Of a DNA stretch of 62,201 bases, positions 18,447 through 45,628 are shown in pieces. Positions within the stretch are counted from its first letter, which is position 1. Each line of letters begins with the position of its first letter. A model generated the notes under the pieces. That model was not told where the DNA came from. It saw only the letters and a program-made list of their open reading frames with translations, and made no database searches. The stretch lies in the sequence record SRR31156797_5248. One strand, 5' to 3'. The translations under genes and the position numbers were made by a program.

Positions 18447-20417
18447 CTAATTTAAATACTTGTACAAATAGTTCTCAAGCTCTTCCTTAGTATCAATCCA
18501 GTTAGGCAACTCTTTTATAATAATTGTATTTTGATCATATGTTGAATCAACTATTGCAAATTCAATTTGAGAATCAAGATTTGAATAAAACTCCCTGTTT
18601 TTAACAGTTTCCCTGCTCCAAAAATATGCTACATTAGAATCATTAATTACTAACCGTCCTAAAGGTATGCAAATAGGGCAATAGGCTTCAGAAGGTTTTC
18701 CGTAAAACTTGGCATGATGAATAAATTGAGAAAGCATTTTTTCTTTTGACCCAAACTCATATTCACCTATTTGATAGCTGCTCAACCATTCCAACCTTAA
18801 TGTGTCTGTCTCATTATAAAAATCAGTCCATTTTTTATTAGAATCGTAAGTTTCAACAGCCAACACATTTCTATTAGAAAAACCATAATTGGTTAAAAAC
18901 AAAGTATCTTTCGTATTACCCGGATCACCTGAAATCTCATCATTCACATGTTCATGAATAAGTAAGCTCCCATCAAAACTGCTCTCAGTTAGTTCATTTG
19001 CATCTGAAAACATCATATAGTATTTAGCACGTCCCTGATATAAGCCAGTTTCCTTATCGAATACCTTACCAAACACATCTTCAGAGTATGAATGAGAACC
19101 ACTTGTAATCTCTCCTCCATCATATACAAGCACAATACGTTTAGTCTTCGTTTCAATTTGACCCATAATGCTTCGTGTACCAAAAACACCAATATCTTCC
19201 ATTTTTTCTTGTGTTTTCAGCCATTCTTGGGTAATATTAAGTGGAGTAGATAATTTCTCATACTTTGAGAATTCCTTTAGTATAAATCCATCATTATAGT
19301 CAAATCCTAATTCAGTAATTCTCCATGAGTTTATATTACTTTTACCTTTGATAGACGTATTAAAAAAAACCTTATCACCTCTAACAGTAATATCATTTTG
19401 TATTTTATCGTTATATGGAACAGAAATCGTTTCAATTTCGTTGTCAAAATCCTTGAATAAACATAGATTTAATTCATGTGAGTCAAAGTCTTTTAAGCCT
19501 TTCCATATGATTAAATAAATTGAATCAGATAAAACTTTTCCTCCAAGAAAATTTAAAATAGGTACAACTTCTTCCTCATCATTTATATATTCACCTGTAA
19601 ATTTTGTTTTCAAATGAAAATATGCCGATAATTCACGATTCAAAGAATCTTTCTTAGCAGCATCCTCTTTTAAAGCTTTTGCTGTAGACCAACTATCATC
19701 AATACTGGAGACTAATGAAAAAACCTCATCTATTGAATAATTATGAATAGCTTTCTTATTGGAAAGTATCATACTATTTTTCACATTGAAATAATCAAAA
19801 CCGAAAAACTGCAAATTGATAGACTCCTCATTTTCATTATTTAAATTAATCCTATCAGGATCATTATCTACAAAATGAAATGTTTGTAATATTTTATCTT
19901 CTTGTCTGATGCCAATAGTAATTGGCTGAAATTTCATTCCAATTTGTCCGGAATATTTCTTACCCCAGCGTGTAAATACAAAATCTTCTCGATATACTCG
20001 CGCTTCTTGCTGATATTCCTCCGGCTCATAACGTACCATAAAAAGAAAATAGTCTTCACCAACTTTCACTTTATAAAGAGGCTTGTATATCCACTGAATA
20101 TCAGAATAGTTTCCGCATAAAGATTGCTGATAATACCAGCCAAAATTCCGGTAGGCATCAACTGAATCTTCGGTTAGTTTACTTTTAAACAATTCTTCTG
20201 AATCCGGTAGTGACTTTCTCTCTCTAAATAACCCAATAAAATCGTCCAAACTAGATACTTTAAAAACCGTATCTGATTTTTTTGTGTCTACCTTTGATTC
20301 TTGATTTTTGGTTTCTGTTTGATTATCACTCTTTTTAATTTGAGGGGACTTTTGCTGACAACCAATTAATAACAATATGATTATCGCAAAGTAAAGGCCT
20401 GCATTTTTAATACTCAT
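18447..20417 (-). CDS. Large hypothetical lipoprotein
   Basis: 656-aa ORF with lipobox LIGC; no recognised domain; AT-rich. Confidence 0.7.
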   Translation of the reverse strand: MSIKNAGLYFAIIILLLIGCQQKSPQIKKSDNQTETKNQESKVDTKKSDTVFKVSSLDDFIGLFRERKSLPDSEELFKSKLTEDSVDAYRNFGWYYQQSLCGNYSDIQWIYKPLYKVKVGEDYFLFMVRYEPEEYQQEARVYREDFVFTRWGKKYSGQIGMKFQPITIGIRQEDKILQTFHFVDNDPDRINLNNENEESINLQFFGFDYFNVKNSMILSNKKAIHNYSIDEVFSLVSSIDDSWSTAKALKEDAAKKDSLNRELSAYFHLKTKFTGEYINDEEEVVPILNFLGGKVLSDSIYLIIWKGLKDFDSHELNLCLFKDFDNEIETISVPYNDKIQNDITVRGDKVFFNTSIKGKSNINSWRITELGFDYNDGFILKEFSKYEKLSTPLNITQEWLKTQEKMEDIGVFGTRSIMGQIETKTKRIVLVYDGGEITSGSHSYSEDVFGKVFDKETGLYQGRAKYYMMFSDANELTESSFDGSLLIHEHVNDEISGDPGNTKDTLFLTNYGFSNRNVLAVETYDSNKKWTDFYNETDTLRLEWLSSYQIGEYEFGSKEKMLSQFIHHAKFYGKPSEAYCPICIPLGRLVINDSNVAYFWSRETVKNREFYSNLDSQIEFAIVDSTYDQNTIIIKELPNWIDTKEELENYLYKYLN

Positions 20418-30171: not shown

Positions 30172-30882
30172 ATGAGAACAATACTAACTATAACATTCAT
30201 ATCAATCTCAATAGTTTTATCTGCTCAATATCGTGTTATGAAGAAAGCAGATCATCACATAAACCTTAAAACTGAGAAAATTGTGCTTCTTGAGCCTTAT
30301 CAAAAACTATTTATTAAATCAGCTACAAAAACTGAAAATTATGAAATAAATAAGAAACGCAATGAATACTTTAATCAATTACTGGAAGCATATTCAAAGA
30401 AACAAGGAATTAATTTTGATATTATAAAACTTGACAGTGCAGACAAAAAAATTCTAGAACACTACAATACACTGGTTCAATTTGATAACCATTGCTATAA
30501 TGTGTTTACAGGACAATACCATTTATTAAATAAAAACTTAAGTGGTGAAAAGAAAAGTAGATATAAAAAGCTAATCTACAATGTACCACCCAAGATTCAT
30601 CCAGAGTATGCTTACCTCAAAAGAGTATTCAATTCACGCTATGTGGCTACTATGGGAGCAATTACATGGCAAAATAAAGACAACATGAATCTTTTCAAGA
30701 GTTTTGTAGGTCCATTAATCGGTAAAAAAGAGTCTTATATGTATCTGCTCATAACTGATTTACTTACAGGAGAAATTGTATACAATATAGTTAAAGGTGG
30801 AAAATTTGCTTTTAATGATAATACGCTACCTCCAATTATATTTGAAACATTAAATATTTTTAAAGAGACATGCCAAAACTAA
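30172..30882 (+). CDS. Exported hypothetical protein
   Basis: 236-aa ORF with signal peptide, in the same gene run as the M48 peptidase. Confidence 0.7.
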   Translation: MRTILTITFISISIVLSAQYRVMKKADHHINLKTEKIVLLEPYQKLFIKSATKTENYEINKKRNEYFNQLLEAYSKKQGINFDIIKLDSADKKILEHYNTLVQFDNHCYNVFTGQYHLLNKNLSGEKKSRYKKLIYNVPPKIHPEYAYLKRVFNSRYVATMGAITWQNKDNMNLFKSFVGPLIGKKESYMYLLITDLLTGEIVYNIVKGGKFAFNDNTLPPIIFETLNIFKETCQN

Positions 30883-30904
30883 AAAACATCAAAGATTTAG
30901 AAAA

Positions 30905-31642
30905 ATGAAAATACATTATAAAACCATTCTTATCGTAATCTTTAGCCTCTTTGTTCAAAACTCATTCAGCCAAAATTGGGGATATGGATATGATGGTAAA
31001 AAATACCTTTTAAAAGCCGATCTTTTAAATGGAAAAAAATCAGTATTATCTGGAATATCAATTGAAACAATTTTATTTCAAAGAAGTACCATAAGTGGCG
31101 GATTAACATGGATTAGAAATAGTAATACTGAACAGCTCTATAGCACTTCAGACTATGAATCAGGAACCCCTGACAAAAAAACTGAAATGAAGGACGATGC
31201 TGAAGTTGAAGAAAGAAGTATAAATATTGAATACCGCTATTATTTAGGATCCTTACCTGCACCAAATGGTTTACACCTATATGGACGAGTAACTTTTGGA
31301 CAACTTTTTATTAATGGCCAATATTATTCCACCATAAATGACACTTATGAAAGCAGAGAGTATGTAGATTATAATTATGATGGTTTAAAATTTACTTCGT
31401 TCTCTGGGGGTATGGGTTACCAAAAATTTATATATAAATCAAATATAAGTTTAGGAGCCCATATAGGTTTTGTTTATACCAAAGCCATACCAGGTTTAGT
31501 CACTGAATTTAGTCAAAAGGTTTCCGGAGTTACTCGAAACTATGGATCAAACCTAAAATCTTTTGAGCCAAAAGATGAAAGCGAAGTACATACAAATTTT
31601 GGAATGCAAGCATTTGTTCAACTCGGATTTTTAATTTTTTAA
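30905..31642 (+). CDS. Putative outer membrane beta-barrel protein
   Basis: Signal peptide; amphipathic strands IEYRYY, GMGYQKF, LGAHIGF; C-terminal VQLGFLIF. Confidence 0.7.
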   Translation: MKIHYKTILIVIFSLFVQNSFSQNWGYGYDGKKYLLKADLLNGKKSVLSGISIETILFQRSTISGGLTWIRNSNTEQLYSTSDYESGTPDKKTEMKDDAEVEERSINIEYRYYLGSLPAPNGLHLYGRVTFGQLFINGQYYSTINDTYESREYVDYNYDGLKFTSFSGGMGYQKFIYKSNISLGAHIGFVYTKAIPGLVTEFSQKVSGVTRNYGSNLKSFEPKDESEVHTNFGMQAFVQLGFLIF

Positions 31643-31652
31643 ATTAGATAAA

Positions 31653-32099
31653 ATGAAAACAATATTTAAATCAATAGTTTTTTTAATTATAATAAGTACA
31701 ATAATAATTTCCTGTGAAGAGGAATACACTGAAGATTATACAAGCTCTGGTGGAGGTGGAGGTGGTGGTTCTTCTACTACAGACTTAACCTTAACAATTA
31801 CATTTGACAACTATCCGGAAGAGACTAGCTGGACATTAGTAAATAGTGTTGGGACAACAGTTGCTGAAGGCGGAGTTTACGCTTCACAAGCTGATGGCTC
31901 TACATTGGTAATTCCTATAAACGGTTTAGCTGATGATTGCTATGATTTCTCCTTCTTAGATTCATATGGTGACGGAATCTGCTGTTCAAATGGAAATGGC
32001 TCATACACTTTGAAAGTGACAGATGGAGTAACATTAGCATCAGGAGGTTCATTTGATTACATTGAACTGACAAACTTCTGCTTACCTTCACTTCCATGA
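31653..32099 (+). CDS. Lipoprotein with Gly linker and a beta-sandwich module typical of T9SS-secreted proteins
   Basis: Lipobox IISC; SSGGGGGGGSS linker; TITFDNYPEETSW...CYDFSFLDSYGDGICCSNGNGSY. Confidence 0.75.
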   Translation: MKTIFKSIVFLIIISTIIISCEEEYTEDYTSSGGGGGGGSSTTDLTLTITFDNYPEETSWTLVNSVGTTVAEGGVYASQADGSTLVIPINGLADDCYDFSFLDSYGDGICCSNGNGSYTLKVTDGVTLASGGSFDYIELTNFCLPSLP

Positions 32100-32397: not shown

Positions 32398-32432
32398 AAA
32401 AAAGGCTGCTTCATATGAAACAGCCTTTCTTT
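32398..32432. terminator. Bidirectional intrinsic terminator
   Basis: AAAAAAGGCTG-CTTCATATGAAA-CAGCCTTTCTT between convergent genes. Confidence 0.85.
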
Positions 32433-32447
32433 GTATATCGATGATGT

Positions 32448-32825
32448 TTATTCAACTTCTTTTTTGTAATCATCAGCTGACATTAGTTCATCTAGTTCAC
32501 CAGCATCAGAAATTTTTACTTTAATCATCCACCCTTCTCCGTAAGGATCTTCGTTTACAGTTTCAGGAGCGTCTTCCAACTTAGGGTTAACTTCTGTAAC
32601 TTCACCAGAAACTGGCATATACATATCTGATACAGTTTTCACTGCCTCAATTGTACCAAATACATCTCCTTTACCTAGGTTTTCGCCTTCGGTTTCAATT
32701 TCAACAAAAACAACATCTCCAAGTTGTTGTTGTGCAAAATCAGTCACACCAATTGTAGCAGTGTCACCATCAACTTTGATCCATTCGTGATCTTTTGTGT
32801 ACTTAAGGTTCTCAGGAATATTCAT
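32448..32825 (-). CDS. gcvH: Glycine cleavage system H protein
   Basis: LKYTKDHEW, GVTDFAQQQLGDVVFV, IEAVKTVSD (lipoyl Lys), DPYGEGW; -7 TAAATTTG at 32853-32860 supports the 32825 start. Confidence 0.97.
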   Translation of the reverse strand: MNIPENLKYTKDHEWIKVDGDTATIGVTDFAQQQLGDVVFVEIETEGENLGKGDVFGTIEAVKTVSDMYMPVSGEVTEVNPKLEDAPETVNEDPYGEGWMIKVKISDAGELDELMSADDYKKEVE

Positions 32826-32905
32826 GATTGCAATCTTTTTTATTGTTTTGGGCAAATTTAGTTAATTTTTTGGGCCATAAAATGATTCTTATCTGTTTTT
32901 AGACA

Positions 32906-35290
32906 TTAATCCTCATTTTTTAGCTCACTTACTTTATTCATTAATTGTGTAATTTCTTTATCTAATTCAACTTTATGTGTAATATCTGTAGCAATATTCA
33001 GCACACGATCTAATTCCTCGTTTTCATATATCGGTAAATATGTTTCACTTAAATAAATGGTTTTATCTCGTTTAATGATTTCATGTATTCTTTTCTTAGT
33101 GACACCACTTATTACTTCTTGCCAGAATTTTAAGAAATTTCTACGAGATGCATCATCTTGTGTAACAAATGCATCCTGAAATTTACCTACCATATTTTCA
33201 GTTGAATGCCCATAGGCACTTGCCATTAATTCATTAATTTTTAGAATACGACCCTCCAGATCATACTCTGCCATCATTAGTGTATTCTGGAAAGTTGTTT
33301 TAATAGCAGAAAGTTCTGACTCTCTTTTTTGAGCTTCTTCCTGCGTAGCTTGCATCTCCTCAAGGTTTTGACGCATTTCTTCTTCTTGTTGTGAGAGCTC
33401 ATCTTTTAGTTCTTCTGACTGTCGCAATAACTGTGCAGTACGAATATTTGTTTTCACACTTGCCACAGTCGCAGCAATACTTTCTGCCACGCTTTCTGCA
33501 AATTTTACTTTATGCTCTTCAAATGGCTGTACAGACATTAACTCCAATACACCATAAGGTACATCATTCATTAACATTGGTACAATTAAAAGATGCTTAG
33601 GTTGCTTATCTTCTACTCTACCGGTTGTAATATTTACGAATGTTTCCGGTGTATTCTCAAGATGTATTCTTCTTTTTTCACTTATTGCCCTACCAACTAA
33701 TTCTTCGCCCTCATAAACTCGTTTCTCAATAATTTTTGCACTACCAAAGGCGTACACAGATTTTAGATCATAAAAAGTACTATTATCCTCTTCCTCCACA
33801 ATAAAAATGGCACTTTGCTCTATCTCCATATAATCACAAAGGTTTCGGGCAATATTGTTAGAGAATTTTTGCATGTCATCATTATCCTGGCGCAATATTT
33901 CGCTAAACTTACCCAATCCTTGCGTTACCCATGCTTGTTTTTGATCTGCCTCTCGTTTTATCTTTTCAAATTCATTGGCTTCTTTCAGGCTTTGTCGCAT
34001 ATCAACCAAAGACCTGCCCAAAAAATCATTTTTGCTGAGTAGTTGATGATCAACTTCTAAATCTCCTTCTCCAATCTTTTTCGCAAAAACTGCTGTAGAA
34101 TTTAAACCATCAATCAACTTATTTAAGCTAACAGCCATATCATTGATCTCATCATTGTAGCGATTTTTGTATTTTAGGGTTTCATCAATATTACCCAATG
34201 AAATCTCTTTGAGAATTTCAGTAATACGCACAACAGGTCGGGTTATTGATCTGGCAATAAAATAAATAAATATACTAAAGATGGCCAGTCCAAATATAGC
34301 AGCTAATATACTGACAATAAATATTTGATCTGCGGTATCATCTAAAAGGGCTTTAGGGACTGCAATACCAAATGCCCATCTATCAAATGAGTCACCAACT
34401 TTGAAGGATGTAAATGAGAAATATGTTTCTTCACCGGTTAAAGGATCCACATCAAAAAATCCGTAATTATCTTGCCATCTGATTTTTTCAAGCAAATCTT
34501 GGGAATTGATGGAACTGTATTTCAGGGTATCAATATTCTTTCCAATCAAAGCCCGGTCTTTATGAGCCACAATGGTTCCTTTATTGGCAATAAGAAAAGC
34601 ATAGCTATTCTCCAAAGGTTTTATTTGTTCAACAGAATCCTGCAATGTAGCTAAAGAAGCGTCAGTTCCTACTACTCCTAAAAATTGACCATTATAGATT
34701 ATAGGCACAATCATGTTGGTTTGGATGATTTCATCCATACCTTTTTCATACGCATAATAATATGGTTCAAGTAAGGTTTGCTTTTGTTTTTCTTTAGGTA
34801 TGGTATAGTAACTTCCCTGGAACAATGGCCCAGTTGACATTCCTTCAATTTTTATACTATCTCCAACACGATAATAAGTTGATGAAAAGTTACCTAAATA
34901 TGTATTACCAATTATGTATTCATACAAACTATCGCGTCCATCAATTGCATTTGGCTCCCAAATTGTCCATGCTCCTAGAAAATGAGGGTTTTCTTTTAAT
35001 ACTGTTTGTAAAATCAACTGAAAATCAGCACGGCGTTGCTCAGGGTCTAAACTTTCAAAAGCAAGGTACATACTGGAAATTGCCTGAGAGGTATTCATGT
35101 ATTCGCTCATAATACCCTGAATCTTTCGAGAATTTGATTCAGTGGCAACATTTATAAATTCTTGTGTGTCCTCCAGTGCCTTTTGTTTAATCTTTAAGCC
35201 AATAACCACAATAGATACTCCAAAAATAACAATCGAGATTGTTAGAATATAGATGAGCATTTTTGCATATAATCTGATTTTTAGCCTCAT
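32906..35290 (-). CDS. dCache-HAMP-GAF-coiled coil-PAS membrane receptor, array member 5 (no catalytic output domain)
   Basis: Two TMs; dCache WEPNAIDGRD...YYTIPK...EPYYY...VVGTD; HAMP SITRP...DEINDMA; GAF GEELVG...VPML; QQEEEMRQNLEEMQATQEE; C-terminal PAS. Confidence 0.85.
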   Translation of the reverse strand: MRLKIRLYAKMLIYILTISIVIFGVSIVVIGLKIKQKALEDTQEFINVATESNSRKIQGIMSEYMNTSQAISSMYLAFESLDPEQRRADFQLILQTVLKENPHFLGAWTIWEPNAIDGRDSLYEYIIGNTYLGNFSSTYYRVGDSIKIEGMSTGPLFQGSYYTIPKEKQKQTLLEPYYYAYEKGMDEIIQTNMIVPIIYNGQFLGVVGTDASLATLQDSVEQIKPLENSYAFLIANKGTIVAHKDRALIGKNIDTLKYSSINSQDLLEKIRWQDNYGFFDVDPLTGEETYFSFTSFKVGDSFDRWAFGIAVPKALLDDTADQIFIVSILAAIFGLAIFSIFIYFIARSITRPVVRITEILKEISLGNIDETLKYKNRYNDEINDMAVSLNKLIDGLNSTAVFAKKIGEGDLEVDHQLLSKNDFLGRSLVDMRQSLKEANEFEKIKREADQKQAWVTQGLGKFSEILRQDNDDMQKFSNNIARNLCDYMEIEQSAIFIVEEEDNSTFYDLKSVYAFGSAKIIEKRVYEGEELVGRAISEKRRIHLENTPETFVNITTGRVEDKQPKHLLIVPMLMNDVPYGVLELMSVQPFEEHKVKFAESVAESIAATVASVKTNIRTAQLLRQSEELKDELSQQEEEMRQNLEEMQATQEEAQKRESELSAIKTTFQNTLMMAEYDLEGRILKINELMASAYGHSTENMVGKFQDAFVTQDDASRRNFLKFWQEVISGVTKKRIHEIIKRDKTIYLSETYLPIYENEELDRVLNIATDITHKVELDKEITQLMNKVSELKNED

Positions 35291-35331
35291 ATCTTTGTGT
35301 TTTTCAATACAATAATTTTTAATACTAAGTT

Positions 35332-38115
35332 CTACCTAACTATTAATCTTCTAATTTCCTTCAAGGCACTATTCCATATGGTTGAAATCTCATCCAATAA
35401 ATCTATAATTTCTTCGCTATCGCCACCGGAATTAATAAGGGCTTCAACTTCTTTTGACATTTCTACAACGCTTGAAAGCCCCAAATACACCATTTTTGTT
35501 CTGAAACTTCCGATTTTAGTTTTCAACACACTTTTATCCTCTTCAACAAAAGAATAAAGTTCTTCAATTTGATTAGGAATTGTTTTCACATAAATACTTA
35601 GTATGTTCTGTATCTTACTAAAATCATCCTTATAAACCTTTTTTAAGTGTGTTAGATCCAAGTATTCAAAATAGCTATCCTGAGCTAATACCTCATCGAT
35701 ACTAATTTTAGGTTTAGCTTTTTTCTTCTTAGCATTCACTTTATCAGATAGCTTTTTATATTCTTCTTTTAAAGATGCCAATTGTTTCTCTTTTCTTTTC
35801 TCATCAGAAATATCGATAGCAATATTGACAACCTTGTAAGGCACACCAACTTCATTCATTATTGGGAAATAATACTCTTTTAAAAAGAATTCCTTCCCTG
35901 CATACTTAGAATAAAAATCGTTGGTGGCAGGTGCACCACTTCTTAATTTTTCCCAAATATTATCATATCGATCTCTTACAGTTGATGATGTAAACTCATA
36001 AGACCCAATTTTTTTATCAACCACCTGCTCGCGTTTCAAATTGAATAGGTGAATCATATTGTCATTAATATCTGTGATGCGGGCATCCATGTTATACTCT
36101 ATGTACAGAATTGTACTTTTAGCCGCAGTAATGAATTTCTGAATGCTATCCTCGCGATTAGTTGCCTCTTCTTGCATAGCTTGCAACTCTTCCATGTTTT
36201 GCCTCATTTCTTCTTCCTGCTGTGCTAATTCATCAGCTTGCTCTTTTGACTTTTCTAATAGAAATGCTGTTTGTGCATTAATTTTAGCAGCAGAAGTCGT
36301 TGATGCAATAGGTACGGATATTTTTTCTACAAATTCAATTTGGTAATTTTGCATTGGTTGCAAAGAAGCTACTTCAATTATGCCAACAACTTGCTCATTT
36401 ATAAGCATCGGTACAATTAATAAACTTCCCGGAACTGTTTTGCCTAAACCAGATAAGATTGGAGAATATCCTTTTGGAATATCATCTCTATAAATTCGCT
36501 CTTTTTCAAGAAAACATTTACCTACAAATCCTTCGTTTGGATAAATCGTTGTTTTCCTCATTTTATCCTTTTCATACCCGATAGAAGCAACCAGTTCAAG
36601 ATACTTATCGTCGCCTTTTCCCTCAACCAAATACAATCCACCCTGATGAGCATTCAGATAATCTACCAATGTAGAAATTATATGCATTGATAGCTTATTT
36701 AGATTATCATTGTCTTGCCTTAGAATTTCACCAAACAAGTTAATCCCTTGCGACGCCCAATTACTTTGCTCATCTTCTTTATTCCGAATCTCTTCTTCCT
36801 CTTTCGCACTTTTTAATGAGTTACGCATTTCCAGCACAGCATTTCCTAATACATCTTTCTCGCTAAGTGGAGTGAACTCTTGATTGAAGTCTCCATTTTT
36901 AATGTGGTTTGCAAAATCAACTGTTGCCTTAAATCCATCAATAATCTGATTTACAGAGCGACCCATTTGTTCAATTTCATCTCCCGATTTAATGGTAATT
37001 TGCTTAATCCCTTTTATTTCTCCACGAGATAATTGATATAATACCTGTGTAGTTCTTCGTAATGGTCTAATAATTTGATATGCAATGAGCAAAATGACAA
37101 TTACTAATGCCAATAACCCATATAAACCAACTTTTTGTGATTCATCAAAATGACTGCGTGCTTCTGTAATTATTTTATCTAATGGGGTATTAATAGCAAC
37201 TCCCCAATAATCTTTACTAGTGCCAAATGTTATGGGTACAATACTTGTAAAGTACTGTTCCTGACTCGATATATCGTATATTTCAAATGAATTAGTTACA
37301 CCACTCTGAATGTTAGATAGTACATTATAATTAATGTTAAACAAACTATCTGCAGTTCTAATATTTTTTCCTAAGAAGGCAGTATCCGGATGTGCAACAA
37401 ATGCACCTTGATTTGATAAAATATAGGCAAATCCATCAAAGGTTTGGTTCAAACTATCCACTAAATCTTTCAATTGCATTAAACTAATATCTGCACCAAC
37501 CATTCCCATAAATTCACCATCATTCAGCAATGGCACTATAATAGAGGACATCAATACATCATCTCCCTCAATTCCAGAAAAGTTATCAAAATAAGGCTCT
37601 GAGAATCCTTCTCTAGGATTTACTTTATAATCATAGTAAATACTTAAGGTATCATCTCCTTCAATATTTTGTCTCTCTGTGGCTGTAATAATCTCACCAT
37701 ATTCTCTTAGCATGGTATGAGAAATCCTTCCATGATTCTTAGTCCAATTATCATCAATAAACTTCAACTCCCAAGAATCCCATGTCGCAAAATATCTCGA
37801 ATTTTGTTCTAAAACTTTCTGCAGTGAAGCATCAAAGTAAGCTGTTTGAGTATAACCATTCTTTTTATAAAGTTCTTCAAAGGAATTTGCATATACTCTA
37901 AACTGCTCAAAATCACTATTAAACAGATTTTGTATGTTCAATGCAAGGTTTTCTGCTTGTTGAAGAGCTGTTTCTTCAGCCATTTCGATTGCCGACTCCT
38001 CATAATCAAAATTTATATAACGAATTGTTAGAAAGTAAATAAAGCTTGCTACAATTATAACTCCCAAAAGCAGCCTTATACTTAAACTGATACGTATTTT
38101 ACTAAGTATTCCCAT
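35332..38115 (-). CDS. dCache-HAMP-GAF-coiled coil-PAS receptor with C-terminal degenerate HPt domain, array member 4
   Basis: Same architecture; C-terminus LDLTHLKKVYKDD...KIGSFRTKMVYLG is HPt-like but lacks the phospho-acceptor His. Confidence 0.85.
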   Translation of the reverse strand: MGILSKIRISLSIRLLLGVIIVASFIYFLTIRYINFDYEESAIEMAEETALQQAENLALNIQNLFNSDFEQFRVYANSFEELYKKNGYTQTAYFDASLQKVLEQNSRYFATWDSWELKFIDDNWTKNHGRISHTMLREYGEIITATERQNIEGDDTLSIYYDYKVNPREGFSEPYFDNFSGIEGDDVLMSSIIVPLLNDGEFMGMVGADISLMQLKDLVDSLNQTFDGFAYILSNQGAFVAHPDTAFLGKNIRTADSLFNINYNVLSNIQSGVTNSFEIYDISSQEQYFTSIVPITFGTSKDYWGVAINTPLDKIITEARSHFDESQKVGLYGLLALVIVILLIAYQIIRPLRRTTQVLYQLSRGEIKGIKQITIKSGDEIEQMGRSVNQIIDGFKATVDFANHIKNGDFNQEFTPLSEKDVLGNAVLEMRNSLKSAKEEEEIRNKEDEQSNWASQGINLFGEILRQDNDNLNKLSMHIISTLVDYLNAHQGGLYLVEGKGDDKYLELVASIGYEKDKMRKTTIYPNEGFVGKCFLEKERIYRDDIPKGYSPILSGLGKTVPGSLLIVPMLINEQVVGIIEVASLQPMQNYQIEFVEKISVPIASTTSAAKINAQTAFLLEKSKEQADELAQQEEEMRQNMEELQAMQEEATNREDSIQKFITAAKSTILYIEYNMDARITDINDNMIHLFNLKREQVVDKKIGSYEFTSSTVRDRYDNIWEKLRSGAPATNDFYSKYAGKEFFLKEYYFPIMNEVGVPYKVVNIAIDISDEKRKEKQLASLKEEYKKLSDKVNAKKKKAKPKISIDEVLAQDSYFEYLDLTHLKKVYKDDFSKIQNILSIYVKTIPNQIEELYSFVEEDKSVLKTKIGSFRTKMVYLGLSSVVEMSKEVEALINSGGDSEEIIDLLDEISTIWNSALKEIRRLIVR

Positions 38116-38127
38116 CAGCTATATCGT

Positions 38128-40878
38128 TTAATTTTTTTTCTGTTTAATAGTTTCAGTGATATCAATCGCAAGATTAATGACTTTAAATATTTCTCCATTT
38201 TCATCTTTTACAGGAATATATACTTCAGAGAAGTACAGGTTTTTTCCTTTAGCCAAAATATGTTGAATAATCTTACGAGTTTTGCCCGCTTTTAAATCAT
38301 CCCATAACTTGTTAAACTCTTTCTTTTTCTCCGGATCGGTTTCAAAAGCTCCCTGCTCAACACCTATCATATCATCTTTTTTAGTATCAAGAAGCTTTAA
38401 GAAATTATCATTAATATCAATTATTTTACGTTGCATATTGTACTCAACATACAATGAAACCTGTTTCACTCCATTAATCAATAATTCCATTTCAGCTTTA
38501 GAAGCTTCTGTATGTTTGTTCATATCCTCCATCTCTTCTATTCTGCTTTTTAACTCGTTCTCAGATTTTTTTCTATCCTCTATATCTCGCAGAACACCAA
38601 TGAATTTAACTTCATTACCCAGTTTTCCTTCTTCTAATCGCAATTCAATATGAAACTTTTTGCCGGATTTATCCATGCCCAACACCTCACGGGCTTTACC
38701 CAACACATGTCGCTGACCAGTTTTTAAATATCGTTCTATATATTTATCATGCTCACGTGCATCTTCACCGTACATAATCATTTTAATATTTTGCCCAATA
38801 GCTTCTTTTGCACTATAACCAAATAGTGTTTCGGCAGCTGGATTCCATAGTTCAATAATACCACGAGAATCAATGGTTATAATAGCATCAACCACATTAT
38901 CGAAAATCATTTGGTTTTTAGCCTGGTTCTCCTTCAGAGATTCTTGGGTAGCTTGAATCTCTTCCATATTTTGTCGCATCTCCTCTTCTTGTTGAGCTAA
39001 CTCTTCAGCTTGTTCCTGTGATTGTTTTAATAATATCTCAGTTCGTTTGTTAATTTTAGATGCAGACAAATCACTAGCTATACTTTCACCAGCTTTTTCA
39101 AGAAATTCAATCTGGTAATCTTCAAACTCACTAAAAGAAACTAGTTCAAGTACACCAAGAACATCTTCATTTACGGTTAATGGAATTAAAAGCAAGCTTC
39201 GAGGATTGCTTTCACCCAAACCAGAAGTCACTTTAATATAGTTCTCAGGTATCTCTTTAAGATAAATTGTTAAACGCTCATGGGCACACCTGCCGACCAA
39301 ACCTTCTTCTGGTTTTACTTTAGCTCTTAATAACTTCTCTCTTTCATATGCAACAGCGGTAATCATCTCATAATGAACATCCGTTTCTTCACTATCATTA
39401 AGTACGTAAATAGCTCCCATAGCCGCATCTACGTATTTAATAATTTGTGAAAGTATAGAGTAAGAAAGTTCATCGAAATCCTTGGCTTGTCGCAGTAAAT
39501 CATTAAGCATTGCCTGTCCGTCAGCTGACCATCTTCTAATGTCTTCTTCACGTTTTCTTTTTGCTTCTTCCTCATTAGCTTTAATGAGATTATTGCGCAT
39601 ATCTAACAATGCACTACCCAACATGTCTTCATCACTTAGCAACTGAAAATCACTGTCATAATTTCCTTTCCCTACCTCTGAAGCAAACTCGGTAGTTCTA
39701 TGCAATCCCATAGTAAGCTGATTGACTGATTCTGCCATAACGCCAACCTCATCTCTGGTCTTTATTTCAATCATATTATCGCGGTCAAATATACCTTGAG
39801 CCAGTTCTTTCAAAATATTAGTGGTTTTAATAATAGGTCGGCTTATACTTTTAGCTATAAACAGGATAATAAAAGCCATAATAATTATTCCAAAAACACC
39901 TATCATTAGACCTGTTCGAAGAAAGGTTGTTGTTTTTTCCAGAATTAAAGAATTAGGAATAGCAATGGCCAATGTCCAGAATTTATCATTCCCGGCTAAG
40001 TATATTGGAGCAAAAGTATAGTGATATTCTTCATTAGTGAGGGTATCATATTGCAAATATGTAAAAGTTTCTCCAGCTTGTATTTTTTCAACCAAATCAA
40101 TTTTATTGGTCAATGCTGTATCTACTTCTTCCAAATGCTTACCTACCCAGTCTGATTTTGGATGAGCTACAACGGTAGAATTATTTGACAAAATAAACGA
40201 ATAGCTTCCGGGATATGGTTTAATGCTATCTGTGATTTTTTGGAAAAAGCTCATGTCAATATCAGCACCAGCCAAACCAGCAAACTCTCCATTACGCATA
40301 ATAGGGACTGAAATATTTGTATTCAGCACTGCATCTTCTTCTTCTCCTGTATAAGAGAAAAGCTCAGGATCTGATATCCAATTTATAATATTAGATTTAA
40401 TCGTATAATAATTACTATTTACATCATCTCCTTCCAGATTTCTACGTGCTTGAAATAATTTAATTACGCCATTCTCACGATAATATCCCTTCATCAATCT
40501 TCCATATTTTAAATCCCATGCACTATCAATAAAACGTATCTCAAAACTTGTGGCAACAGACAAGTAATGCTTATTCCGCTCTAAAATCTTCTTTTGTTGT
40601 GCCAAAAATATTTCTTCCCAACTTTCAAAATCATCAGTCGAGAACGTCATTCCAATATCAGCAATTACCTCAATTGCCTTGAAATCAGCATCTATAGCTG
40701 CTTTAATCAAATTAGCCCGCTCACCTGCTGTTTGTTCCACAATTTTATAGGTGTCAGCACGAGTTGACTGAATTGTTTGATAAATAACTACACCAAGTGA
40801 AACAATATATATTAATGCTGCTCCACTTAATAAGTAAACAAGCATCCGGGTATTAATATTGAACTTTATCTTCATCAT
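38128..40878 (-). CDS. dCache-HAMP-GAF-coiled coil receptor with an extra FixL-like heme PAS plus terminal PAS, array member 3
   Basis: Same architecture; inserted PAS DAIITID...NPAAETLFGY...EHDKYIERYLKTG...GKAREV...RDI. Confidence 0.87.
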   Translation of the reverse strand: MMKIKFNINTRMLVYLLSGAALIYIVSLGVVIYQTIQSTRADTYKIVEQTAGERANLIKAAIDADFKAIEVIADIGMTFSTDDFESWEEIFLAQQKKILERNKHYLSVATSFEIRFIDSAWDLKYGRLMKGYYRENGVIKLFQARRNLEGDDVNSNYYTIKSNIINWISDPELFSYTGEEEDAVLNTNISVPIMRNGEFAGLAGADIDMSFFQKITDSIKPYPGSYSFILSNNSTVVAHPKSDWVGKHLEEVDTALTNKIDLVEKIQAGETFTYLQYDTLTNEEYHYTFAPIYLAGNDKFWTLAIAIPNSLILEKTTTFLRTGLMIGVFGIIIMAFIILFIAKSISRPIIKTTNILKELAQGIFDRDNMIEIKTRDEVGVMAESVNQLTMGLHRTTEFASEVGKGNYDSDFQLLSDEDMLGSALLDMRNNLIKANEEEAKRKREEDIRRWSADGQAMLNDLLRQAKDFDELSYSILSQIIKYVDAAMGAIYVLNDSEETDVHYEMITAVAYEREKLLRAKVKPEEGLVGRCAHERLTIYLKEIPENYIKVTSGLGESNPRSLLLIPLTVNEDVLGVLELVSFSEFEDYQIEFLEKAGESIASDLSASKINKRTEILLKQSQEQAEELAQQEEEMRQNMEEIQATQESLKENQAKNQMIFDNVVDAIITIDSRGIIELWNPAAETLFGYSAKEAIGQNIKMIMYGEDAREHDKYIERYLKTGQRHVLGKAREVLGMDKSGKKFHIELRLEEGKLGNEVKFIGVLRDIEDRKKSENELKSRIEEMEDMNKHTEASKAEMELLINGVKQVSLYVEYNMQRKIIDINDNFLKLLDTKKDDMIGVEQGAFETDPEKKKEFNKLWDDLKAGKTRKIIQHILAKGKNLYFSEVYIPVKDENGEIFKVINLAIDITETIKQKKN

Positions 40879-40901
40879 TCGTCAATGCTTTTTAAACGCC
40901 T

Positions 40902-43247
40902 TTATTTCTTTAAATGAGTAATATCCATTGCTATGTTTATCACCCTTACAGGAACACCTTCGTTATCTTTTATTGGGGTGTAAACTTCTGACAACCAGCG
41001 TTCTTTATTATTTATTTCAATACGTTGCTCTTGCTTATGGGGTATACCTTTTCTCATTTTAGCCCAAAGTTGCTCAAATGCTTCTACACGGGCTTCATCT
41101 TCGCCTATTTCAAAAAAGCCTTGTCTTTTACCAACAATTTGTTGCTTTGGTAATTCAAGAAGCTTAGCATAAGCATCATTCACGCTTGTAATATAACCAT
41201 CCATTGAAAGTTCTGCTACATAGGCAATAGAGTTAATGGCAGTAATCATTCCAGTCATCTCAGCTTCCCGCTTCGCAGCCTCCTCTTGAGTTGCTTGCAT
41301 CTCTTCCATTTGTTGCCTCAATTCTTCCTCCTTCTCAGTCAATTCACCCGCTTGAGATTTAGTTTGATCTAATAACCTTGAAGTTCGTTGACTAATTTTA
41401 AGCGAAGCAATTGATGATGCAATACTTTCTGCTGCTCTCTCAACAAAATCAATTTGATGTTTTTCGAATACATTAAATGAAACAATTTCCACAACTCCCA
41501 TTACCTCTTCATTCAAAATTAATGGAACGATAAGCAATGCTCGTGGAGTTGACTTACCTAGACCCGAAGTAATATTTACATAATCCTCTGGAATTTCAGT
41601 CATGCATAGTGTCGATTGTTCAAAAGCTGCACGACCTACCAAACTTTCACCCATTTTTATAGTTCGGTGATGAGGCTTTTTTCGACCCCAAGCTAATGCT
41701 GAAGTAGCTTCAAATGATCTATCGTCGATAGTCTTAGCATCATCATCTACTAAAATATACATTGAACCCTGATTGGCGTCAAGATAGTTGACAATCAACT
41801 CAACAACTTTATAAGATAACTCTTTCAAATCATTGTATTGACGCAGTAACTCATTTACTTTTGCGACACCATCAGCAATCCATCGTTGAATTTCATCTTG
41901 TTTTTTACGCAATTTTTCGTCTTCTTCTGCTTTTACCAGGCTTTCGCGCATATTAAGTAATGCATTACCCAAGACATCATCATCACTTAACTTATCAAAC
42001 TTTACATTCAGGTTGCCTTTACCAATTTCTTCAGCAAACTCAGCAGTTTGCGAAAGATTTACCCGCAATCCGTTCATAGCCAGAGCAATAGACCCGATCT
42101 CATCTTTTGTTTTAATTGAAATAGTTTGTTTGGTATTAATTTTTCCTTTTGATAATTCTTTTAGCATTGCCGAAATATGTAATAAAGGCCTGGACATATT
42201 TCTGGCAATTAAAAAGAGTACAATACCTAAAACGACGATACCTAATAATCCAATAAGCATAGTTTCAAGCATATTTCTATTTGCTTTTGCAACCATCTGC
42301 TCATGAGGAACAACAACACTTAAATACCATGGAGTGTCTGTGTCTCCCACATAAACCGGAGCGAAAGTCACGAAAAATCTTCCATCTCCATCATTTCTTT
42401 CAAATGAGAATTTTTCTCCATTTTGCATATATAGATCGAAATGATATTTTTCATTGGCTTCGGGATTATCTTCAATTAAACTTTTACCAATGTTTTTAGC
42501 ATCGGGGTGATATATAAAAGTTCCTTCATTGCTCACAAAAAATGCATAGCTCCCTTTATATGGTCTAATTGATTTTACAAGCTCTTTAAAGCGACCTATT
42601 TCCATATCAATTCCCATTAATCCCAAAAACTTGGTGCTCTGCAACACAGGTACGGCAATACTAGCCACAAATACTAATTCATTTTCATTATTAGTGTATG
42701 AATCCCAATATGGTTGAGTTATGATAGATCTTTTATATTTTCTGGTATAGTAGTACAAGCCTTCATCTTTCGTTTTATCAACATCAAGTGTTTCTATTTT
42801 AAGTTTAATCTCATTATTCGCCCTAAAATAATTGGTTCTGACTCTACCATATTGTTTTGTGTAAGTCTCATCAATTGCACTCAATTCCCAATTCATCCAA
42901 ATCGATTGAATATGGGCATTATGTTCAAAAACTCTTTTCAGTATACTTGGTACAACTACCTCTCTGACGGTATCCGGAAACAAGACAAAATCTTCAAAAC
43001 TTTTTGCTAGTGTATGTGTCAAAGAGAAATCTTTATTCAATTCTCCTTCAATTTTATTAGCCTGATTCAGAGCCATTTGCTCTGTCATGCGCTTGGCGTC
43101 ATTCAAGGCCATTTTTCTGGTAGTGAAACTTATATACAAAATTATAAGCATGAACACAATCAAAGCGCTACTCAAAACAAAGATTTGTAGCTTTATTTGA
43201 ATACTCTCTCTTATTTTTTTCAATAACCCCTTCATTCGCAGTGGCAT
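40902..43247 (-). CDS. dCache-HAMP-GAF-coiled coil-PAS membrane receptor, array member 2
   Basis: Two TMs; dCache TQPYWDSY...MGID; HAMP; GAF GESLVGRAAFE...TSGLG; EEELRQQMEEMQATQEE; PAS. Start could also be 43235. Confidence 0.85.
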   Translation of the reverse strand: MPLRMKGLLKKIRESIQIKLQIFVLSSALIVFMLIILYISFTTRKMALNDAKRMTEQMALNQANKIEGELNKDFSLTHTLAKSFEDFVLFPDTVREVVVPSILKRVFEHNAHIQSIWMNWELSAIDETYTKQYGRVRTNYFRANNEIKLKIETLDVDKTKDEGLYYYTRKYKRSIITQPYWDSYTNNENELVFVASIAVPVLQSTKFLGLMGIDMEIGRFKELVKSIRPYKGSYAFFVSNEGTFIYHPDAKNIGKSLIEDNPEANEKYHFDLYMQNGEKFSFERNDGDGRFFVTFAPVYVGDTDTPWYLSVVVPHEQMVAKANRNMLETMLIGLLGIVVLGIVLFLIARNMSRPLLHISAMLKELSKGKINTKQTISIKTKDEIGSIALAMNGLRVNLSQTAEFAEEIGKGNLNVKFDKLSDDDVLGNALLNMRESLVKAEEDEKLRKKQDEIQRWIADGVAKVNELLRQYNDLKELSYKVVELIVNYLDANQGSMYILVDDDAKTIDDRSFEATSALAWGRKKPHHRTIKMGESLVGRAAFEQSTLCMTEIPEDYVNITSGLGKSTPRALLIVPLILNEEVMGVVEIVSFNVFEKHQIDFVERAAESIASSIASLKISQRTSRLLDQTKSQAGELTEKEEELRQQMEEMQATQEEAAKREAEMTGMITAINSIAYVAELSMDGYITSVNDAYAKLLELPKQQIVGKRQGFFEIGEDEARVEAFEQLWAKMRKGIPHKQEQRIEINNKERWLSEVYTPIKDNEGVPVRVINIAMDITHLKK

Positions 43248-43255
43248 ATTTAAGG

Positions 43256-45556
43256 TTAACTATTTTTACTATGTGTTATATCTATTGCAATATTTATGAC
43301 CTTATATGGCTGTCCCTCAGCATTAAGGATTGGCCTGTACGTTTCGAGCAATGTTACTTCACCTGCACCAGCTCTCACACTTTGCTCTTTCTTAACTGTT
43401 TCACCCATTCTCAACAATGACCATGTTTCTTCAAACTCATCCTGATCAAAGCTATCAGAAAAACTACCTTGCTGCATTCCAATAAGCTGGTCTTTCGGTT
43501 TGGCAAGCAAGACTTCAAGATTTTTATTCACTTCAATTAAATGTCCGTCCATATCAAATTCTGCCACAAAAGCCACATCCATAACTGCCTGATGAAGGGC
43601 GTTCATCTCCATTTGCTTACTTTGGGCTTCCTCCTGAGTAGCTTTCATTTCTTCTACATTTTGCCTCATTTCCTGCTCCTGCCTTGAAAGTTCATCAGCT
43701 TGCTTTTGAGACTGATGAAGTAATTTTTCTGTTTTTTGATTGATACGCACATTAGAAATAGTGGCGGCAAGATTCTCACCTATACGTTCCACAAGGTTTA
43801 TTTCATGTTTCTCTAGTTCCTGAAATGAAATCAATTCAACTACACCTAATATTTCTTCATTACTTCGCAATGGTACCAATAAAATGGTACTTGGATTTGC
43901 ACCTCCTAGACCTGACTTAATATCAACATAATCCTGAGGAATTTCAGTCAAGTAAACGGTAAGTCCTTCATACGCACATCGGCCAACTAAACCTTCCTCA
44001 TCTTTAATCTTTCTTTCTATTAATTTGCTTCTTCCAAAAGCTATTGCTGAGGTAAGTTCGTAAAACACCTCTTCTTCCTCATCATTCTTTACATAAATAC
44101 CTCCCTGATTAATACCCAAATAATCAAGCACATACTGAAGAATTTTAAATGTGAGTTCCTTTACATTGTGATTATACATTCTAAGCAGATCACTTGTTTC
44201 AGTGATAGCTTTAGTAGTCCAGTTAGCAATTTCATCTTCTTTTTTGCGTTTCTCTTCTTCTTCTCTTGCTCTTTGAAGATTGTTTTGCATCTCGATCAAT
44301 GACTTTCCAAGCTCATCTTCCTCATCTGTAATTTTGAATTCATAATCCAATTTCCCTTGTCCTAGATTTTTTGCAAACTGGTTTTTAAGATTTAACTTAT
44401 CAATGGTTTTATTCAAAGCTTCAGCCATTTCCTGTATTTCATCTCCTGTACTTAGTTTTAGCTGATTCTTTGTATTAATTTCACCTTTTGCCAGTTTGTG
44501 CAACTGATTTGTCACAGCGTGTATAGGTCTGGAAATATTGAGACTTACAAAATAGATCACAATCCCTAATAGTAACAACCCAATAGCGCCAACAATAAGT
44601 GAAATATATAAATTGTCGTTAACCTGCCGGATGATGCTATTCTTAGGTACTGTAATTCCGAGGTACCAATATGTATCTGTGCGGCTTATTTTAATAGGTT
44701 GATAACTAACAAATCGTGGCTCATCCTCTCTGGTATCAATTAAAGAAAATGTTTCACCAAGCTTCATTTTTTGATAAAGATTAAAATCTTTATTGCTAGT
44801 TGGATTGGCATCTACATATGTATTAAGCTTTTCATTATCGGGATGACCAGCATATTTACCATTATGTGATATTAAAAAAGCATAACTACCGTCAAGATTT
44901 TTAATTTTTATGCGATTTACAATTTGTTGAAAACGATCCAGGGTAACATCAACACCAATAAGCCCGACAAAAGTTTTTTGATCCATTATTGGAGCCTCAT
45001 AAGTGGTCATGAGCTTTTGTTCTGATTTTTGCTCAGTAAAAGCATCAGCGTAAAGTTCCGAAATTAATTCCCGCTTTAAAGCTTTATCTTTAGCATAATA
45101 CTCATTATCACCATCTAAGCTTCTGATGTCTACCAATCTTTTCATTTCACCCTTTTCACGCAATCGAGTATTCGTAATTCTTCCTGTTGGTCGTGTCCAG
45201 GAACTATCAACAATATTTAGCTCCCAACTATCCCAAAGTTGGTAAAACTCCGGGTTGCCCATAAATACATAATCATAAATCTCATTAACAAGTTTTTGGT
45301 ATTCATCTTTTGGAAGAAACTTATAAGTTTTAAAAGTTTGAGATAGGGTCCTGACAACTGCAAAGTCTTCATTTATCAATGAACCAATTTCATTGGCATA
45401 TTTTTCGGTTTGAGATTCAATAAGTCGGGTTTGTGTCAAATAAGAAGACGCTCTGTCTTTGAAAGCAATATAACTTATAGCACCGGCAAAAACCAATACA
45501 GATAAACTCGTAATAATAAATTGTATCTTATGTCGAAGTTTTAATCTTATTCTCAT
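43256..45556 (-). CDS. dCache-HAMP-GAF-coiled coil-PAS membrane receptor, array member 1
   Basis: Start MRIRLKLR; dCache WDSWEL...IGVD; HAMP; GAF EEGLVGRCAYE...KSGLG; QEQEMRQNVEEMKATQEE; PAS. Confidence 0.85.
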   Translation of the reverse strand: MRIRLKLRHKIQFIITSLSVLVFAGAISYIAFKDRASSYLTQTRLIESQTEKYANEIGSLINEDFAVVRTLSQTFKTYKFLPKDEYQKLVNEIYDYVFMGNPEFYQLWDSWELNIVDSSWTRPTGRITNTRLREKGEMKRLVDIRSLDGDNEYYAKDKALKRELISELYADAFTEQKSEQKLMTTYEAPIMDQKTFVGLIGVDVTLDRFQQIVNRIKIKNLDGSYAFLISHNGKYAGHPDNEKLNTYVDANPTSNKDFNLYQKMKLGETFSLIDTREDEPRFVSYQPIKISRTDTYWYLGITVPKNSIIRQVNDNLYISLIVGAIGLLLLGIVIYFVSLNISRPIHAVTNQLHKLAKGEINTKNQLKLSTGDEIQEMAEALNKTIDKLNLKNQFAKNLGQGKLDYEFKITDEEDELGKSLIEMQNNLQRAREEEEKRKKEDEIANWTTKAITETSDLLRMYNHNVKELTFKILQYVLDYLGINQGGIYVKNDEEEEVFYELTSAIAFGRSKLIERKIKDEEGLVGRCAYEGLTVYLTEIPQDYVDIKSGLGGANPSTILLVPLRSNEEILGVVELISFQELEKHEINLVERIGENLAATISNVRINQKTEKLLHQSQKQADELSRQEQEMRQNVEEMKATQEEAQSKQMEMNALHQAVMDVAFVAEFDMDGHLIEVNKNLEVLLAKPKDQLIGMQQGSFSDSFDQDEFEETWSLLRMGETVKKEQSVRAGAGEVTLLETYRPILNAEGQPYKVINIAIDITHSKNS

Positions 45557-45580: not shown

Positions 45581-45628
45581 CAAAAATACGCAGTTCTGAA
45601 GATTAAATAAACCTCAAAACTGCGTATT
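45581..45628 (-). terminator. Terminator-like hairpin directly upstream of the receptor array
   Basis: Minus strand AATACGCAGTTTTGAGG-TTTATTTAAT-CTTCAGAACTGCGTATT followed by TTTG. Confidence 0.7.

Follow-up and report, generated by a model that had tools for sequence, protein, structure and literature searches.

Five output-less dCache-HAMP-GAF-PAS receptors encoded in tandem, and their possible link to a CheR/CheB-associated PP2C partner switch in Bacteroidales

The 62,201-nucleotide stretch of DNA from sequence record SRR31156797_5248 (here called the window, by which its whole length is meant) carries a tandem array of five genes for large membrane receptors, P0001 to P0005, that sense with a periplasmic dCache domain, continue into the cytoplasm with HAMP, GAF, a long signalling helix and PAS, and have no output domain of any recognised kind. 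The interpretation that we favour, with a confidence that stops a little short of even, is that these are methyl-accepting receptors that feed a PP2C-type phosphatase at the head of a partner switch, with methylation and coupling to the phosphatase being the two steps that we infer. It builds on the observed architecture of the five proteins and their lack of output, on the homology between their cytoplasmic module and that of a phosphatase in related organisms, and on the gene neighbourhoods and co-occurrence patterns of their relatives.

Pfam searches identified in all five proteins a dCache_1/MCP-like PDC domain (MCP-like_PDC_1; MCP, methyl-accepting chemotaxis protein), HAMP, GAF_2 and a C-terminal PAS_4/PAS_9, and each of them has a hydrophobic segment on either side of the Cache domain, near residues 12-40 and 323-349. 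Profiles and hydrophobicity agree in every case with the order transmembrane segment (TM)-dCache-TM-HAMP-GAF-coiled coil-PAS that had been proposed in an earlier interpretation made from the letters and open reading frames (ORFs) of the window, to which we refer as the sequence-only reading. An MCP-type front end, i.e., a periplasmic sensor followed by HAMP, is a feature of all five. No HisKA/HATPase, GGDEF, EAL, SpoIIE, cyclase, REC or MCPsignal domain was found in any of them (Pfam at E<=1, NCBIfam at E<=0.1), the MCPsignal hairpin PF00015 giving no match at E<=1 in P0001-P0005. Models of kinases and MCPs matched HAMP or PAS portions only, and far under their cut-offs, e.g., the CtpM MCP model, whose cut-off is 900, scored 21-34 bits and aligned with the HAMP region alone. 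An AlphaFold2 model of P0004 residues 400-781, with a mean predicted local distance difference test (pLDDT) score of 85, consisted of a helical HAMP-like linker, the GAF, a continuous helix of 79 residues and the PAS, and as modelled leaves no residues over for a hidden domain. Foldseek searches with this model returned GAF, PAS and phytochrome-type neighbours only, and the earlier claim that the proteins lack an output domain withstood both the profile and the structural comparisons, neither of which uncovered a cryptic catalytic or MCP domain. The GAF resembles GAF domains of the PtsP and cNMP types.

The nearest proteins are 80-81% identical to those of the window, one of them labelled Salinivirgaceae, and more distant relatives go under the name of "GAF domain-containing protein" or, in annotations of the Joint Genome Institute (JGI), "methyl-accepting chemotaxis protein". 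When one genome per species was scanned, related stretches numbered more than 532, almost all of them in metagenome-assembled genomes (MAGs) of Bacteroidales, with the cultured organisms Perlabentimonas gracilis and Fulvivirga lutimaris among the matches. Our A2 profile, which covers the module of linker, GAF and helix, matched 6,507 cluster representatives among 1.84 billion at E<=1e-30 and, at E<=1e-60, 92 of the 251 Bacteroidales genomes sampled; a first look gave up to 54 module candidates per genome, and scoring covered 10 per genome. A sample of 201 genomes from the entire phylum was too sparse, with strong matches in the centre genome and G115 only. Output domains were sought by Pfam in 47 proteins, taken as every third of 141 among the 150 best A2 representatives, and not one of the 47 had a kinase, cyclase, phosphatase, REC or MCP domain (E<=1e-5); what they did have was GAF (47), PAS (37), HAMP (25), various Cache domains and, in one protein each, hemerythrin and PilJ. 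The absence of an output is therefore a rule of the family and not an oddity of the window's five.

Tandem arrays of 2-5 copies occur in 29 of 78 related loci. Within the window's array, P0002-P0005 have 30-31% pairwise identity to P0001 and all five frames are intact, which agrees with the earlier description of the copies as strongly diverged yet unbroken. Each paralogue is closer to relatives in other genomes (up to 51% identity in GTDB loci, with P0004 reaching 81% and the P0002 tail 73% in metagenomes) than to its neighbours in the array, and the duplications behind the five paralogues are therefore old.

Across 49 family members, the majority fraction was highest in the core of the helix that follows the GAF (0.84) and lowest in the PAS (0.47), and two members encoded in the genome G003 stop about 30-35 residues past the helix motif, without a PAS. 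For these reasons the helix, and not the PAS, would seem to be the common functional end of the receptors. Four of the five window proteins have exposed Glu-Glu pairs at core positions 7, 14 and 21, a spacing of exactly one heptad; in P0004 these are E641/E642, E648/E649 and E655/E656. When the P0004 module was compared by blastp with ten HAMP-GAF hybrid kinases of RsbK-type architecture, identities of 26-35% over 235-267 residues were obtained. Nine of the ten alignments extend into the helix, and QQEEL..NEEL repeats follow the GAF in all of the kinases except P0105. Such kinases are distant sequence relatives of the module with a homologous post-GAF helix, a relationship that does not imply orthology to RsbK itself. 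In addition, Perlabentimonas encodes a 971-residue CheB-CheR fusion (L084, G001:C17:25611-29180) in which five consecutive NEEL heptads come straight after the CheR domain, a motif that resembles the receptor helix. In Bacillus cereus, RsbK is a CHASE3-HAMP-GAF-S-helix-HK-CA-REC hybrid histidine kinase, and its signalling helix past the GAF is methylated by the CheR-like methyltransferase RsbM (PMC4574943). By analogy with this precedent, and given the heptad Glu-Glu pairs, the kinase helix homology and the NEEL heptads of the fusion protein, the helix of the receptors may likewise be a site of methylation.

Partners were sought in five related genomes, which stood in for the genome of the window's organism. 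CheR and CheB were present in all five, and two of them (G004 and G005) gave no MCPsignal match and no CheW match. In these same two genomes an operon encodes CheR, CheR, CheB, a TM-GAF protein, an 868-residue protein, a DUF6272 protein and a SiaC-family protein, and the same order was present in four of the four Bacteroidales genomes examined first (G001, G003, G004 and G005). The operon's CheB has 186 residues and is without a REC domain. The 868-residue protein (P0127) proved to have a membrane anchor, a HAMP-like linker, a GAF, an acidic helix and two PAS domains ahead of a SpoIIE/PP2C domain; over its residues 96-360 it has 34-37% identity to four of the window receptors, and P0001 matched residues 96-485 at 29% identity (tblastn E-values against the window receptors of 1e-34 to 1e-47). 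Its phosphatase domain is nearest to SiaA in NCBIfam (NF038263, E 2.5e-49), the DUF6272 protein falls above the cut-off of the SiaB kinase family NF038262 (PDB 6kko_A, E 5e-12), and the last gene of the operon encodes a protein nearest to SiaC/DUF1987 (PDB 6kko_C, E 5e-16). The gene 3' of siaC in G004 is for a TerB-ABC transporter.

The homology of linker, GAF and helix in P0127, together with the conservation of the helix, sustains the suggestion of the sequence-only reading that the GAF and coiled coil, and not the sensor, are the conserved shared part. The same reading placed the output in the terminal PAS or in a heterodimer with a kinase encoded elsewhere, and an account along these lines, in which the receptors act by protein contact and methylation has no role, has several points in its favour: all five proteins end in PAS, dimerisation is commonly mediated by PAS domains, and the HAMP-GAF-helix hybrid kinases are distant relatives. 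However, an output in the part that is least conserved, that is missing from the two G003 members and that is replaced in others by extra sensor domains is unlikely. A kinase sharing the module fares little better, for among the 12 module matches of G003 ten were output-less by Pfam, one was a PP2C and one, with an internal stop, fell outside the Pfam check, and no module-bearing kinase was found in that genome at E<=1e-20; in a Salinivirgaceae genome, the SiaA-type PP2C is the one protein found to combine the module with an output. As this account also leaves the CheR/CheB neighbourhoods unexplained, we judge it unlikely overall.

Those neighbourhoods are not restricted to the phosphatase. 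In Perlabentimonas a 792-residue HAMP-GAF-helix-PAS-PAS member lies between the operon's two cheR genes, and in Fulvivirga (Cytophagales) a 714-residue member lies immediately upstream of cheR-cheB-TM/GAF. Five further MCP-less genomes were checked for neighbourhoods of CheR and the module, the fifth assembly being fragmented; in the other four (G249, G281, G229 and G285) there was a CheR match 1.3-1.5 kb from the PP2C orthologue and, on the same contig, a module gene within about 1-2 kb of a CheR match. A soluble GAF-helix-PAS3 member closes a classical che cluster in G003 and G001, and the same spacing from cheR to a module gene, 3-6 kb, was also seen in G425, G357, G302, G363 and G310, among the rows listed. 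In the sample of 251 Bacteroidales genomes, CheR was present in 92 of the 92 module-positive genomes versus 62 of the 159 module-negative ones, SiaC in 90 versus 24, and MCPsignal in 76 versus 24, and 16 of the 92 had kept CheR with no MCPsignal match. A co-occurrence with cheR and cheB and a possible independence from CheA had both been foreseen in the sequence-only reading; the former is seen in relatives, in the operon, the neighbourhoods and the 92 genomes, and the latter is supported by the 16 genomes lacking MCPsignal and by the lack of CheW in G004 and G005. For the association with gliding or T9SS that the same reading gave as an example, no pointer emerged, no search having been aimed at it.

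A closer tie to classical chemotaxis also has to be weighed, i.e., that the receptors are accessory inputs to the CheA/CheW pathway that compete for, or recruit, CheR, CheB and CheD and thereby bias the adaptation of MCPs. The frequency of MCPs among the module-positive genomes fits with this, as does the finding in G003 and G001 of a soluble GAF-helix-PAS3 member as the last gene of a cheY-cheA-cheW-cheR-x-cheD-cheB cluster. Yet the 16 genomes without MCPsignal, and G004 and G005 without CheW, retain the family and the CheR-CheB-PP2C operon, and the receptors lack the MCP hairpin that would let them enter arrays, which makes an accessory role quite unlikely. The clusters themselves (L104, G003:C13; L105, G001:C100) are complete and classical, with CheY, CheA, CheW, CheR, a 299-residue HisKA-like/HATPase protein, CheD and CheB, and MCPsignal genes in 100 of the 251 sampled genomes were unexpected, Bacteroidales being a mostly non-flagellated order.

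In the mechanism that would follow from methyl-accepting receptors feeding a PP2C partner switch, each gene would encode a membrane receptor of the dimer type whose periplasmic dCache binds a ligand, and the signal would travel from the second TM to the long signalling helix with its variable PAS end, by way of HAMP, a second helical linker of HAMP-like type and the GAF. Further cytoplasmic input could enter through a FixL-like PAS, the hemerythrin of relatives or a His-less HPt. The helix would be reversibly methylated by the CheR-type methyltransferases and demethylated by the REC-less CheB esterase, and the receptors would modulate the single paralogue per genome in which the module is fused to a SiaA-type PP2C, in the simplest form by making mixed complexes with it through their common HAMP-like/GAF/helix/PAS module. 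This phosphatase, opposed by the SiaB-family kinase, would then set the phosphorylation state of the SiaC-like switch protein. A broader version, which we put forward tentatively and with more doubt than belief, is that environmental Bacteroidales have a CheA-independent, chemotaxis-like apparatus in which one module-bearing SiaA-type PP2C receives the signals of output-less methyl-accepting dCache/Cache/PAS receptors, of which a genome may have as many as dozens, the CheR pair and the REC-less CheB are responsible for adaptation, and the signal is read out by SiaB/SiaC Ser/Thr phosphorylation and not by a His-Asp relay; the window genes would be one ligand-specific battery of it.

Several points weigh against coupling and methylation as described. 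The CheR, CheB and PP2C operon is presumed for the window's organism by extrapolation from other Salinivirgaceae and Bacteroidales; a tblastn search of the 62-kb window gave no match to CheR, CheB, SiaB or SiaC, and at none of the 78 loci most closely related to the dCache-type receptors of the window does CheR or CheB lie within 10 kb. Where the operon exists, its CheR and CheB may modify the phosphatase only. The 10-residue consensus that we take to mark MCP methylation sites, [ASTG][ASTG]xx[EQ][EQ]xx[ASTG][ASTG], had no match in P0001-P0005 or P0127, and it matched four times in each of two Perlabentimonas MCPs; only the short form EExxA[ST] matches, and it does so in four of the window's five receptors. 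Common ancestry and large signalling repertoires confound the co-occurrence counts, and the PP2C was itself counted as a module match. Because the counts are uncorrected for ancestry and include the phosphatase as module, the neighbourhoods outweigh them as evidence. Finally, the article texts searched on the family and on a link between CheR, PP2C and SiaC contained no experiment on any member.

The GAF, or the GAF with the PAS, could instead bind a nucleotide or metabolite, and the receptors could act by sequestration or on some other partner, apart from CheR/CheB and PP2C. The likeness of the GAF to PtsP-type and cNMP-type domains is consistent with such a role, and so is the absence of a direct CheR link in the window itself, but the strongest conservation is in the helix and not in the GAF pocket, and the occurrence of the same module at the head of a phosphatase in a CheR/CheB operon would have no explanation; we regard this possibility as improbable. 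That the five are decayed kinases or MCPs, functionless since losing their outputs, has nothing beyond the missing domain to recommend it and is disfavoured to the point of being very hard to credit, with five intact frames at about 30% identity, each paralogue nearer to relatives in other genomes than to its neighbours, arrays of 2-5 recurring in 29 of 78 loci and output-less relatives in the thousands.

The receptors and their presumed partners can be compared with four known systems. In B. cereus, RsbK and RsbM act upstream of the PP2C RsbY, a separate REC-PP2C, and its partner switch, and RsbM is called an orphan methyltransferase, with no esterase (PMC4574943). RsbK and the window receptors both have a membrane sensor, HAMP, then GAF and then a signalling helix, whereas RsbK has in addition a histidine kinase core and a C-terminal REC, and the window proteins are without HisKA, HATPase_c and Response_reg. 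The system of the relatives differs from RsbK-RsbM-RsbY in that its PP2C is fused to the module, that it has two CheR as well as a CheB, and that its output-less paralogues are many, and its switch is of the SiaB/SiaC type in place of RsbV/RsbW/sigma-B. A cheR gene adjacent to the receptor, as is typical of RsbK, was not found in the 62-kb window or in the 78 related loci with their 10-kb flanks, and is found beside other family members in the relatives. With SiaABCD of Pseudomonas aeruginosa, the relatives' operon has in common a SiaA-type PP2C, a SiaB-family kinase and SiaC/DUF1987 (PMC8457831); it is without the diguanylate cyclase (SiaD) that SiaABCD possesses (PMC8457831), its phosphatase has a GAF, a helix and two PAS domains more, and it adds CheR, CheR, CheB and TM-GAF. 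The window's own five proteins have no Sia domain.

MCPs share with the window receptors the dCache_1 and HAMP front end, the tandem paralogues, the genomic association with CheR/CheB and the acidic pairs at heptad spacing along a long helix. The window receptors differ from them in having neither the MCPsignal hairpin nor consensus sites, and the family persists in genomes without MCPs or CheW. Among the CheB-CheR fusion proteins of Bacteroidota, that of Perlabentimonas has NEEL heptads like the window helix, but these proteins are enzymes with CheB and CheR domains of their own. The five proteins are thus neither MCPs nor RsbK-type kinases nor Sia proteins; by analogy, the closest counterpart of the receptors would be the sensory half of RsbK, and that of their presumed partner would be SiaA-SiaB-SiaC.

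Taken as a whole, the sequence-only reading was right about the output-less state, the shared core and the link to cheR/cheB, and calls for revision over the kinase partner and the PAS output. Its word "undescribed" was too strong, as HAMP-GAF with a methylated helix upstream of a PP2C switch has been characterised in RsbK/RsbM (PMC4574943). What seems new is the assembly of a large output-less receptor repertoire, a receptor-like PP2C that shares its module, a pair of CheR with an esterase, and independence from CheA/CheW in some genomes; no description of output-less receptors together with CheR/CheB and a module-bearing PP2C was found in the article texts searched. Output-less sensors are usually set aside as unexplained, and here they form a family of thousands, of which some genomes may have several dozen copies. 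If the link is true, it would mean that a Ser/Thr partner switch makes use of reversible glutamate methylation, the hallmark of adaptation in chemotaxis, and this in a phylum of which the signalling apart from two-component systems has been little studied. It would also provide a testable function for orphan CheR/CheB genes in genomes without MCPs and CheW, and extend the single characterised case of RsbK/RsbM into a widespread design.

The positions of the array, of the helix cores and of other features are collected in Table 1.

Table 1. Coordinates of the receptor genes, their helix cores and associated features; positions are those of the window except for the TM-GAF genes, which are given within their own loci.
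Feature	Position	Strand	Remarks
Receptor 1, P0001	32906..35290	-	794 residues; TM-dCache-TM-HAMP-GAF-signalling helix-PAS
Receptor 2, P0002	35332..38115	-	927 residues; common architecture plus C-terminal HPt-fold bundle
Receptor 3, P0003	38128..40878	-	916 residues; common architecture plus extra FixL-like PAS
Receptor 4, P0004	40902..43247	-	781 residues; common architecture
Receptor 5, P0005	43256..45583	-	775 residues counted from TTG; common architecture
Signalling-helix core of P0001, residues 631-651	33338..33400	-	Glu-Glu pairs at intervals of 7 residues
Signalling-helix core of P0002, residues 629-649	36169..36231	-	
Signalling-helix core of P0003, residues 626-646	38941..39003	-	third acidic pair missing (Glu-Ser)
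Signalling-helix core of P0004, residues 635-655	41283..41345	-	most conserved 20-residue stretch in 49 members
Signalling-helix core of P0005, residues 631-651	43631..43693	-	
HPt-like helical bundle of P0002, residues 775-927	35335..35793	-	about 150 residues
Extra FixL-like PAS of P0003, residues 658-770	38569..38907	-	between helix and terminal PAS
gcvH (glycine cleavage H protein)	32448..32855	-	50 nucleotides downstream of receptor 1
Terminator-like hairpin	32398..32431	-	15 pairs and a T run; 3' of gcvH
TM-GAF gene, L099	11525-12298		
TM-GAF gene, L102	12231-13028		
TM-GAF gene, L103	3676-4560		

The five minus-strand ORFs are separated by 41, 12, 23 and 8 nucleotides, as the sequence-only reading had it in giving gaps of 8-41 nucleotides between five genes on the same strand. 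For the fifth gene, P0005, an in-frame ATG at 45556 is likelier to be the start than the TTG, and it is the start that had been adopted previously. The sequence TATTTTTG at 45581..45588 on the minus strand, 25 nucleotides upstream of this ATG, fits TAnnTTTG, which we take to be the -7 box of Bacteroidetes. A sigma-70 promoter scan, a method unsuited to Bacteroidota promoters, gave 42 sites versus 63 in shuffled sequences and was left unused. Downstream, gcvH may belong to the same transcript as the receptor genes, and the hairpin past it is the sole strong terminator-like one on the minus strand between 32000 and 47000, the interval searched. Upstream (5') of the array are trpS and an RND efflux operon. 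No signalling partner was seen among the neighbours in the 62-kb window, which are housekeeping or efflux genes, and PP2C, SiaB and SiaC are not encoded together within it, the operon being known from the relatives. Scans of the window for tRNAs and Rfam families gave no match. At the Pfam thresholds used, matches were lacking for a 656-residue ORF at 18447-20417 (-) and for three adjoining ORFs of 236, 245 and 148 residues at 30172-32099 (+).

Two of the receptors have domains of their own. The tail of P0002 was predicted by AlphaFold2 (pLDDT 84.5) to have the four-helix-bundle fold of HPt domains, and the ten best PDB rows from Foldseek were all HPt (e.g., 3myf, template-modelling score 0.79, and 7c1i, 0.80) at E-values of 4e-3 to 7e-2. 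The tail was searched for a phospho-accepting His in a helix of the H-x-x-K-G type and has none; Gly95 of the tail aligns with the phospho-accepting His of the HPt in hybrid kinase P0136, and Gly occupies this position in nine of ten aligned sequences. This degenerate tail has been kept in eight orthologues at 56-73% identity, and its role may be in docking and not in phosphotransfer. In P0003, the additional PAS has as its best match the NCBIfam FixL sensor model (E 1.8e-31), and an E-H-D-x-Y stretch in it resembles what we take to be the heme-pocket region of FixL, which makes it a possible, putative input for O2/heme.

Among the wider relatives, proteins P0137-P0140 and P0142 are of 1,900-2,400 residues, with 6-9 stretches that match the module profile, and open frames of about 2,000 and about 1,200 residues with weaker module matches (E about 1e-50) occur in G095, G047, G163 and others, of the Flavobacteria/Cytophagia type. 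The closest relative of P0001 on a genome contig is in a MAG labelled Thiohalospira, a gammaproteobacterial genus (contigs L001 and L057), where it adjoins genes for a TonB-dependent receptor and SiaC; these are probably mis-binned contigs of Bacteroidota. In G003, a 665-residue frame with an internal TAG and a module match (L113, G003:C8:121000-127500) is possibly a family member turned pseudogene. The TM-GAF protein of the operon (257-294 residues) has no helix motif, and its gene always lies between cheB and the phosphatase gene or, in Fulvivirga, after cheB.

SpoIIE genes near 7 of the 78 loci were considered as partners and rejected. The two that were scanned encode unrelated TPR-SpoIIE and Reg_prop-Y_Y_Y-GAF-SpoIIE proteins, and as there are dozens of SpoIIE genes per genome these neighbours are probably due to chance. 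SiaC or SiaB-like genes beside two of the 78 loci (L001 and L025) were given no weight. SiaC-family genes reached at least 16 matches per genome in G003, G005 and others (16 were scored per genome, and first-look candidates numbered up to 46). Genes with a SpoIIE domain have undergone a massive expansion, G272 giving about 40 matches for the SpoIIE part. Both observations suggest that environmental Bacteroidales have a very large repertoire of PP2C partner switches.

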